Shown piece after piece: positions 28,755-30,278 of a DNA stretch of 32,000 nucleotides. This stretch comes from Candidatus Harpocratesius repetitus (GTDB lineage: Archaea > Asgardarchaeota > Lokiarchaeia > Sigyniarchaeales > Promethearchaeaceae). A program made the translations under genes and the position numbers. The stretch covers positions 150,001 through 182,000 of the forward strand of contig JAIZWK010000001.1 of assembly GCA_021498095.1 (NCBI GenBank), written 5' to 3'. Position 1 is the stretch's first letter; every line of letters begins with the position of its first letter. A model generated the notes under the pieces. It was not told where the DNA came from, searched no databases, and worked only from the letters and a program-made list of their open reading frames with translations.

Positions 28755-30278
28755 TTGATAATAGTTGTCCAAGAACCAGGAACGCGCTTAGGGAAAACCA
28801 GTGAGCAACTGAAGATTATTCGCAGCGACGGGGAGTTTAAAGTTGCATTCCGTTTAATTGAGTCAATAGTTTGTTTAACGAAATGCTACATTAGTTATGA
28901 TGTTAACATTGCTTGTGCCAATTACGGCATTCCTGTATTTTATATGCGGAAAGGTCATCCAGTAATGGCAACGCTTCCATATGCACATCATGGCTTCGTA
29001 ATTACCCGAAAAGCGCAATTTGATTCGTATTCAAATGGAAAAGGGATGCTTTTGATGACTGCTATAATACTGGGGGCGATAACAAATAAGATTCGTATGA
29101 TAAAATATCTTGCACGAAATATAAAAAGGAATGATGTTCAAAAGGCAAAAGAATTTCAGAATAAAGCGGCTCGAATGGAATTACTAAGGAAAGAAGTGAA
29201 AAAAATTGAAAAAGAAATAAAAAATTGGCATTTAGAGAAAAATCAAAAGATTAAACCACAAAAAAACACTAAAGGCACAAATAATGAGAAGAAAAGGGAA
29301 AATGAGAGAAAGAATAATATAAAGACAGAAAATATAGACAAAAACGAAGAAAAGAAAGAAGGAGAGATTGAAAGCGAAGAAAAGATAGAAAATATTGGCA
29401 ATAGAGAAGAAATGAAAAAAGAAGAAATTGAAAGCGAAAAGAAGATGGAATTTATTGACAGTAGAGAAAAAGATAAAACGAATAATAATGAAAACGATAA
29501 AAAGAAAGAATATGAAGAAGAAAATGAAGAAAAAAATGAAGAAAAAAATGAAAAGAAAATAGAATATCCAACAATTAATAAAAAGAAGAAAGAAGATGAC
29601 AAAATAAGCGAAAAAAATTTAGCGGAATTAAAAAGCAATGAGAAATTTTTCCCACAATTCAAACAACCAAAAGAAATAAAAAAAACCGAGAAAATAAAGA
29701 AATCTAAACCGAATCCAAATGGTTTGCGGGCGAAATTGATGGGTTATGAAGGTAGTGCATCTCGGATCTATTTTGGATTATTGAAAGAAGTATTTCCAAC
29801 AAATTTGGAATTCAGCAAGCGGGTTCGTCGACCTCCTACAGATCCAATAAATGCTTCAATAAGTTTCGGCAATCATCTACTTGCAAATGAGATAATGGTT
29901 GCAATTGTTGTAGCAGGATTGGAGCCTTTTGCAGGTTTTATGCATTCAGATAGATCCGGGCGCCCTTCCTTAGTATTTGATTTAATGGAAGAATTTCGGC
30001 AACCAATAGTAGATCGCTTGATTTTAAGATTATTTCGGAAGCGGATATTGCAGAAGAAGCACTTTACAGATGAAGGCGATGAATTTGGAATGCGTTTTAC
30101 GAAATCTGGAATGGAGATCTTTCTTCGTGAGTTTTATTATTTAGTTCGGAAACAGGGCGAATATATAAAGGGTACATTCATAACTTATCAAAATTTGATG
30201 TTAAACCAAGCGCGAATGATGGTTCGTTATTTTTTGGGTAAAGTAAAATCGTATAAGCCATTTTTAATGAAATGGTAA
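28755..30278 (+). CDS. cas1: Cas1 integrase with a ~160-aa charged low-complexity insertion (507 aa)
   Basis: RKAQF, LMGYEGSASRIYF, RRPPTDPINASISFGN, GLEPFAGFMH, SLVFDLMEEFRQPIVDR: catalytic E/H/E present. TTG start. Confidence 0.97.
   Translation: MIIVVQEPGTRLGKTSEQLKIIRSDGEFKVAFRLIESIVCLTKCYISYDVNIACANYGIPVFYMRKGHPVMATLPYAHHGFVITRKAQFDSYSNGKGMLLMTAIILGAITNKIRMIKYLARNIKRNDVQKAKEFQNKAARMELLRKEVKKIEKEIKNWHLEKNQKIKPQKNTKGTNNEKKRENERKNNIKTENIDKNEEKKEGEIESEEKIENIGNREEMKKEEIESEKKMEFIDSREKDKTNNNENDKKKEYEEENEEKNEEKNEKKIEYPTINKKKKEDDKISEKNLAELKSNEKFFPQFKQPKEIKKTEKIKKSKPNPNGLRAKLMGYEGSASRIYFGLLKEVFPTNLEFSKRVRRPPTDPINASISFGNHLLANEIMVAIVVAGLEPFAGFMHSDRSGRPSLVFDLMEEFRQPIVDRLILRLFRKRILQKKHFTDEGDEFGMRFTKSGMEIFLREFYYLVRKQGEYIKGTFITYQNLMLNQARMMVRYFLGKVKSYKPFLMKW

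Follow-up and report, generated by a model that had tools for sequence, protein, structure and literature searches.

Cas1 is the enzyme that writes new CRISPR memories, and it is usually viewed as a compact, highly conserved integrase. Canonical examples with solved structures, all from Cas4-containing systems, are the A. fulgidus protein (4N06), the Synechocystis type I-D protein (7CR6) and the A. halodurans type I-C protein (8D3L). The turn between helices α2 and α3 of the catalytic domain is short (~4-13 residues) in all three. Enlarged proteins, well above 340 aa in length, are also known: the type I-G Cas4-Cas1 fusion (7MI4), RT-Cas1 and Cas6-RT-Cas1 (7KFT), fusions of a kind in which folded domains are added terminally. 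Cas4 of the type I-C complex is docked for the most part on the active subunit of Cas1, close to the active site of that subunit, and an active-site mutant of this Cas1 has been made at E166 (bioRxiv 10.1101/2022.05.30.494039).

Wu et al. gave Candidatus Harpocratesius repetitus its name because of its repeats, which account for 4% of the genome, and also report intragenic tandem repeats to be abundant in Heimdallarchaeum genomes; cas1 and the adaptation module are not discussed in that paper (Wu et al. 2022, PMC8813620). The Cas1 of this organism shares with 4N06, 7CR6 and 8D3L the two-domain fold, the catalytic residues, the cas2 and cas4 neighbours and an accompanying array. The sequences of these three proteins align with it on both sides of an insert that makes its α2-α3 turn ~165 residues longer than theirs. 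The fusions of the 7MI4 and 7KFT type, which are found among its homologues, are comparably large, but here the added segment is predicted to be unfolded, contains no recognizable domain, and lies within the catalytic domain rather than at a terminus. The protein is an intact Cas1 with an unusually long, predicted disordered loop. Most likely the loop is tolerated, having arisen as repeats expanded locally at a site that has proved permissive more than once. Literature searches turned up no account of inserts inside Cas1.

The CRISPR-Cas locus and its Cas1

The window (the whole stretch of 32,000 nucleotides that was analysed; Table 1) covers a type III-like CRISPR-Cas locus in a genome of 4.36 Mb and 31% GC that is assembled as one scaffold with 10 Ns. 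The effector genes encode an HD-domain Cas10 and several RAMP proteins, with Csx10 weakly hinted at. It is this type III-like effector module that the Cas1 serves, which sets it apart from the canonical 4N06, 7CR6 and 8D3L. The reverse complement of the CRISPR repeat ends in ATTGAAAT; the crRNA is therefore read from the minus strand, which places the leader on the side of the array that faces the adaptation module. Two more genes of the module follow outside the window, a second cas4 and one for a 772-aa protein with a metallo-β-lactamase/β-CASP-type C-terminus. The genome as a whole has four arrays with the same repeat, amounting to 213 repeats and 209 spacers. Two adjacent spacers come from overlapping protospacers (20-nt overlap).

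Table 1. Features of the locus, numbered from the first nucleotide of the window
Feature	Coordinates	Strand	Remarks
Cas4 gene	12639-13325		
CRISPR array	13382-24745	-	152 repeats of 37 nt; 151 identical, only the left-most (trailer-end) mutated
Leader region between array and adaptation module	24746-25667	-	Similar leader start in relative L004
Cys-rich protein, 950 aa, without known family	25668-28520	+	Contains six arrays of in-frame repeats; heads the module in relatives as well
Intergenic purine-rich 36-nt tandem repeat upstream of cas1	28554-28624	+	Repeat scan
cas1	28755-30278	+	507 aa, TTG start; PF01867 and TIGR00287 matches
Cas1 N-terminal β domain with helices α1 (95-124) and α2 (128-165) of the catalytic domain	28755-29249	+	Residues 1-165; AF2 pLDDT mostly 83-98, one block 69
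Low-complexity K/E/N insert of Cas1	29250-29714	+	Residues 166-320, ~155 aa; 78.5% purine DNA; predicted disordered
60-nt (20-aa) tandem repeat in insert	29321-29510	+	3.2 copies, 77% matches; 60-nt-offset self-matches
12-nt (EEKN-type) tandem repeat in insert	29506-29560	+	4.7 copies, 90% matches
Cas1 catalytic helical domain after insert	29715-30278	+	pLDDT 87-98; aligned to solved Cas1s
Cas1 catalytic codons	E332 29748-29750; H397 29943-29945; D409 29979-29981; E412 29988-29990	+	Invariant columns
Intergenic 34/17-nt tandem repeat, cas1-cas2 spacer	30297-30392	+	Spacer 80% purine; period not divisible by 3
cas2 with long repeat-rich tail	30414-32000	+	585 aa in full; continues beyond the window end

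A genome-wide profile search finds this cas1 to be the sole Cas1 gene of the genome. The N-terminal sequence MIIVVQEPG is also found in relatives, in one of which the start codon is ATG. The protein scores 240 bits against Pfam Cas_Cas1 PF01867 (cutoff 22.3) and 210.9 bits against TIGR00287 (cutoff 71.7), and each profile matches in two stretches (~3-152 and ~305-460) with the insert between them. The AlphaFold2 (AF2) model has the two-domain architecture (N-terminal β, C-terminal helical), with core pLDDT >90, and Foldseek aligns it with A. fulgidus Cas1 4N06 at E = 8.6e-21 and a target TM of 0.85.

E332 occupies the aligned position of E166 of the type I-C protein. Together with H397, D409 and E412 it shows no variation across an alignment of 49 Cas1 sequences (the query and 48 homologues), which bears out an earlier assessment of this Cas1 as catalytically intact. 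Identity to the closest relative, P0002, is ~91-93% in the conserved core and flanks, and dN/dS of both flanks relative to the same protein is 0.03-0.045 (~0.04) at dS ~1.1. The Cas1 core is thus under strong purifying selection, and relaxed selection on cas1, which had been considered beforehand, is rejected. The gene has its customary surroundings, with cas2 135 nt downstream and the 152-repeat array with its leader upstream. By profile, fold, catalytic residues and neighbourhood the protein belongs to the Cas1 family, and integrase activity is predicted for it. Its scores against the subtype-level NCBIfam models lie below their cutoffs (I-C 180.6 and I-D 169.5, both with cutoff 385; I-B 123.6, cutoff 304.1), and judged by these models it would be assigned to none of the subtype families Cas1c, Cas1d and Cas1b.

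In the array of the nearest relative the repeat differs by one substitution and the leader is similar, but not one of the 209 spacers matches any of that array's 44 leader-proximal spacers. Turnover of spacers between the two is complete, which bears on array acquisition, a point on which the preliminary description had made its interpretation depend. Since both lineages and the next two outgroups have inserts, it follows by parsimony that these spacers were acquired by insert-bearing Cas1s. That a single Cas1 serves 213 repeats whose spacers have turned over is indirect evidence suggesting that it works as an integrase.

The insert in the catalytic domain

The insert is flanked by predicted helices 128-165 and 321-346 of the AF2 model. 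The preliminary description had seen a K/E/N-rich insertion at 29232-29720 (residues 160-322), directly before the sequence LMGYEG. The insertion and its placement stand, with boundaries drawn in slightly to those of Table 1: LMGYEG and E332 both lie in the helix that begins at residue 321, with E332 11 residues into it. Lys (40 residues), Glu (37) and Asn (21) dominate the 155-residue composition; 56% of the residues are charged, 15% are hydrophobic, and the net charge is ~0. At the DNA level the purine content compares with 53-59% for the Cas1 core.

The insert is repeat-derived. The 20-aa repeat that had been noted previously is present at residues 192-211 and 212-231 and is followed by a third, degenerate copy (232-251). 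Neither a mobile element nor a duplicated segment qualifies as the source of the insert: blastn and tblastn searches of the genome return only self-matches and weak matches to purine tracts, with no paralogue or copy elsewhere. An inserted folded domain or an intein is likewise rejected, because a Pfam search finds no domain in residues 160-325 and AF2 confidence is low.

A disordered loop had been proposed for this segment, and structure prediction agrees: pLDDT is 34-67 in the insert, compared with the well-predicted core, and the insert contains merely short helices of low confidence. Together with its composition and the failure to align it with relatives that are ~91-93% identical in the flanks, this fits a disordered low-complexity segment, and the insert is probably disordered in the physical sense also.

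This is a singular sequence in its genome. It is the top-ranking K/E/N/D-rich stretch among all 3279 ORFs; four of these ORFs contain 60 consecutive residues of which 70% or more are K/E/N/D, and 49 have low-entropy stretches of any kind. Low complexity throughout the genome therefore does not explain the insert.

Over the 163 codons of 29232-29720 the Cas1 frame is without stops, while the other plus-strand frames have 11 and 25. The stop-free frame reflects selection on the reading frame, which is to be expected merely from the need to keep the C-terminal domain in frame. Full-length Cas1 is presumably translated through the insert.

The α2-α3 turn in other Cas1 proteins

The extent to which other Cas1 proteins are enlarged at this position was surveyed in 263 sequences that retain both flanks, drawn from word-indexed hits, metagenome loci and 1.84 billion representatives that were searched exhaustively. 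About 90% of these have 13 or fewer extra residues at the turn, in accord with the earlier statement that most Cas1s have a short loop here. Twenty-one have at least 25 extra residues and five have more than 100: P0061 (184), the present Cas1 (171), P0062 (131), P0136 (130) and P0002 (112). In the alignment with the 48 homologues, the interval from residue 150 to residue 327 measures 177 aa in the present protein but 6-13 aa in 42 of the homologues.

A tree built from Cas1 cores with the insert removed groups the present protein with seven others in a clade that has full support. The loops of the eight are 171, 112, 55, 48, 27, 184, 131 and 6 residues long, and branch lengths in the clade exceed one substitution per site. 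Seven of the eight thus have an insert (27-184 aa), and the insert sequences are unrelated. Two further supported Cas1 clades have independent loops of 30-130 aa. The preliminary description had named terminal fusions as the known enlargements of Cas1. These are not the only ones, since the same internal loop is enlarged, by up to 184 aa, in most members of this clade and in two others; internal enlargement at the site is recurrent.

What these loops share is not sequence. The metagenomic P0061, P0062, P0136 and P0184 (72 aa; like P0136 a member of another Cas1 clade) have the same insertion point as the present loop and are likewise polar, low in hydrophobicity, non-basic and domain-free, but their sequences are unrelated to it and to be distinguished from its K/E-rich composition and visibly young tandem repeats. 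No conserved motif was found across the inserts, and the inserts of four relatives gave no Pfam match. Composition varies from K/E/N in the present protein to N/Q/S in P0002, P/S/Q in P0003, S/P/N in P0061, E/P/Q in P0062 and G/A/P/E in P0136. Where the DNA of the locus was fetched, composition tracks locus GC, which is 30-31% in the present genome and in L004 and L006 (the loci of P0002 and P0003), 39% in L090 (P0061), 45% in L091 (P0062) and 59% in L092 (P0136). Each of the 21 inserts of at least 25 aa has a net charge on the acidic or neutral side, +5 at most, and none is clearly basic.

Among named proteins, the nearest to the present Cas1 belongs to 'Candidatus Harpocratesius sp.', followed by one from Promethearchaeota, in line with a Lokiarchaeial Asgard archaeon as the source. 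Among 13 other genomes of the family a related Cas1 is found in one only, at 39-41% identity and without an insert, and two genomes of the same genus have no related Cas1. A metagenome scan for closer Cas1 relatives yielded none above 45% identity.

Repeat expansion and the possible role of the loop

The insert is as described, but it is not a one-off: lineage-specific repeat inserts are also present in the upstream Cys-rich protein, in Cas2 and in the β-CASP nuclease (and in Cas4 in one relative), and tandem repeats of the same purine-rich kind extend into the intergenic DNA. In alignments with relatives, conserved blocks of these proteins are broken at the same sites by inserts of differing sequence. 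The module has a characteristic gene order (Cys-rich protein, cas1, long cas2, cas4, β-CASP-type protein, sometimes cas6), which is found in whole or in part at the loci of six of the seven remaining members of the clade. The contig of the last one, L090, is 2.2 kb long and stops early in cas2, with cas1 as its sole other gene.

In-frame tandem repeats occur in 277 of the 3279 ORFs of the genome, and the 20-kb interval that holds the module is the third densest in them, at ~12 times the mean. The largest numbers of in-frame arrays per ORF are those of the 950-aa protein (six), Cas2 (six) and the β-CASP protein (four), so that the module holds three of the five ORFs in the genome with at least four arrays. 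When the best periods in the modules of the present genome and of two AT-rich relatives are compared, all 40 arrays within genes have a period that is a multiple of 3, but of the 11 intergenic arrays only 3 do (Fisher p = 2.6e-7). This pattern is the signature of a regional repeat-generating mutation filtered by reading-frame selection. Tandem repeats are entirely absent from the module of L091 (45% GC).

The account that we favor, with modest confidence, is that the α2-α3 turn is a permissive surface site and the loop a disordered passenger arising by slippage-type duplication, with Cas1 acting through its unchanged core. A regional tendency of the AT-rich Harpocratesius-like lineage to generate tandem repeats would strike genes and intergenic spacers alike, with selection purging a repeat only where it disrupts the frame or introduces a stop. 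The turn would have grown to ~155 residues by in-frame duplication of purine-rich codons, in 60-nt and 12-nt units. The segment, once translated, would form a disordered, net-neutral polyampholyte loop that leaves the folded core ~11 residues before the catalytic Glu. The topology of the antiparallel α1/α2 hairpin suggests that the loop would emerge from that end of the helical bundle which lies closest to the N-terminal domain, within reach of the active site. Integration of spacers would proceed by way of the unchanged core. If only frame-breaking and stop-adding repeats are purged, the loop would be mainly a tolerated passenger devoid of sequence-specific function, and would probably have no function of any other kind. 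The absence of a conserved motif, a composition that tracks GC, repeats in non-coding DNA and the existence of a loop-free relative (P0063) support this account. The preliminary description had suggested that the loop could affect the binding of prespacer or leader; P0063, a member of the same clade, has 6 extra residues at the site in a module that is otherwise identical, which argues that the loop is dispensable.

If the loop is merely a passenger, the finding is a curiosity. The turn before the catalytic helix of a protein generally thought of as compact repeatedly tolerates 130-185 residues predicted to be unstructured, and in engineering it offers a place at which a tag or domain could be inserted. 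The locus is also a clean natural example of repeat-generating mutation and frame-keeping selection together producing low-complexity protein segments in a prokaryote.

A different view, which has an appreciable chance of being correct but falls well short of even, is that the loop is a functional disordered region that works through bulk properties such as its length, its polarity and a charge that is not basic. As a flexible lid, or as a gate that mimics DNA, it might cover the active site or the Cas4-docking face. Alternatively, it could form a disordered shell together with the Cas2 tails and the inserts of accessory proteins, tethering or concentrating the adaptation machinery. Persistence speaks for function. 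A loop is retained by all but one of the clade members despite complete turnover of its sequence and over deep divergence, and the retention extends to L091, a lineage without ongoing repeats. Prokaryotic genomes tend toward DNA loss, and persistence of a long loop for this reason hints that selection may maintain it. That loops at this site are never clearly basic could reflect a constraint beside a DNA-binding channel. The anchor of the present loop is about three helical turns from E332, and the neighbourhood of the active site is where Cas4 docks in the type I-C complex.

Cas2 figures in the argument on both sides. It is extended (154-738 aa) in all modules of the clade in which the gene is complete (in L090 and L097 the contig ends within cas2). 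A complex of four Cas1 and two Cas2 subunits would, by simple arithmetic, hold ~1,600 disordered and ~1,500 ordered residues, so that more than half of the mass of the predicted Cas1-Cas2 complex would be unstructured. Coupling between the length of the Cas1 loop and that of the Cas2 tail was nevertheless considered and rejected: P0063, with its 6-residue loop, has a Cas2 of 383 aa, while the 130-residue loop of P0136 adjoins a Cas2 of normal size (95 aa), and loop and tail are hence uncoupled. Beyond this, a function for the loop has to contend with the loop-free module of P0063, with inserts that have no motif in common, with a length that ranges from 27 to 184 aa without reaching a plateau, and with the occurrence of the same kind of repeat in non-coding spacers.

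The most inclusive form of this idea would make the disordered segments of the module collectively (the loop of Cas1, the Cas2 tail of 150-650 aa, and the inserts that the Cys-rich and β-CASP proteins carry) a selected working part, a eukaryote-style shell that gates the active site or tethers and concentrates the adaptation proteins at the leader. We regard this as unlikely. Whether spacer acquisition in Asgard archaea is modulated by disordered regions is a question that the present Cas1 raises.

It would be surprising if the insert disabled Cas1 or had to be removed from it, that is, if the gene were decaying or interrupted by an intein, intron or mobile insertion that is excised. A 465-nt insert near the active site could in principle be disruptive. 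Yet both flanks are under the purifying selection described above, the catalytic residues are intact, and the insert is in frame and stop-free, matches no intein or other domain and has no copy in the genome. The graded lengths in relatives (27, 48, 55, 112 and 171) fit gradual growth and not a single event, and the only Cas1 available to the 213 repeats is associated with full spacer turnover relative to the array of the nearest relative.

The notion that the insert is an assembly or sequencing artefact in a low-complexity region can be set aside: the source assembly is probably a long-read one (PMC8813620) and the region is rich in homopolymers, but the frame is preserved, relatives from separate, independent assemblies have inserts at the same Cas1 site, and two independent Logan assemblies (SRR15988955 and SRR15988961) are identical in DNA sequence to the window over the entire cas1 gene, which confirms the insert as a genuine feature.

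The adaptation gene neighborhood

The immediate upstream neighbor of cas1 in this Cas1 clade is always a Cys-rich protein of 444-950 aa that is assigned to no known family. Two of its segments are kept across relatives whose Cas1 proteins are at 40% identity: the block GII..V..K...GG...P.LV at the N-terminus and the motif LNL.(D/E)LIGH.I at the C-terminus. The protein is a candidate adaptation accessory.

The C-terminus of the 772-aa protein resembles ligase-associated beta-CASP/MBL exonucleases (TIGR04122, E = 2.6e-12, which is below cutoff). This beta-CASP-like protein is a conserved member of the adaptation module, since a homologue (E = 1e-25) occupies the same module position in the 45% GC relative.

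Coordinates of the features discussed
Feature	Sequence	Positions
Cys-rich protein gene	window	25668-28520
Cys-rich protein gene	L004 (Harpocratesius sp. relative)	4478-7324
Cys-rich protein gene	L091 (45% GC relative)	1960-3537
Cys-rich protein gene	L095 (clade relative)	289-1623
Cys-rich protein gene	L097 (clade relative)	827-2962
772-aa protein, 3' of cas2-cas4	L003 (same genome, past window end)	3364-5682 (genome 183364-185682)
Homologue of 772-aa protein	L091	7013-8536
CRISPR arrays, common 37-nt repeat	genome, outside window	119812-137594
CRISPR array (152 repeats), common 37-nt repeat	window	13382-24745
467-aa ORF, no known family, between effector genes and cas4	window	11131-12534

A Cas1 loop in another clade

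The Cas1 of a 59% GC locus (L092, contig Ga0599166_0222501), which belongs to a different clade from the window Cas1, is an independent instance of loop enlargement at the same site. Its loop is 130 aa long and G/A/P/E-rich, and its cas1 neighbors encode a normal 95-aa Cas2 and a 192-aa Cas4.

Arrays, spacers and other repeats

One 37-nt repeat is common to four arrays (of 2, 6, 53 and 152 repeats), despite which the genome has a single cas1. Comparison of the spacers with the rest of the genome found no match. Two neighboring spacers (window 22345-22456) derive from overlapping protospacers with an exact 20-nt overlap, a pattern that fits clustered uptake of spacers from a single target. Near the trailer end of the window array, one spacer is present twice (13871-13908 and about 14172-14209), and repeat search found a 112-nt unit at 13909-14020 and, with 100% identity, at 14210-14321; together these suggest internal duplication within the array.

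In L004, the cas1-cas2 (8757-9399, 643 nt) and cas4-beta-CASP (12484-13001, 518 nt) intergenic spacers are both full of purine-rich tandem repeats, with periods of 10, 20, 34 and 86. The 467-aa ORF also bears repeats, in-frame and of 27 and 9 nt (window 11635-11704 and 12144-12261).
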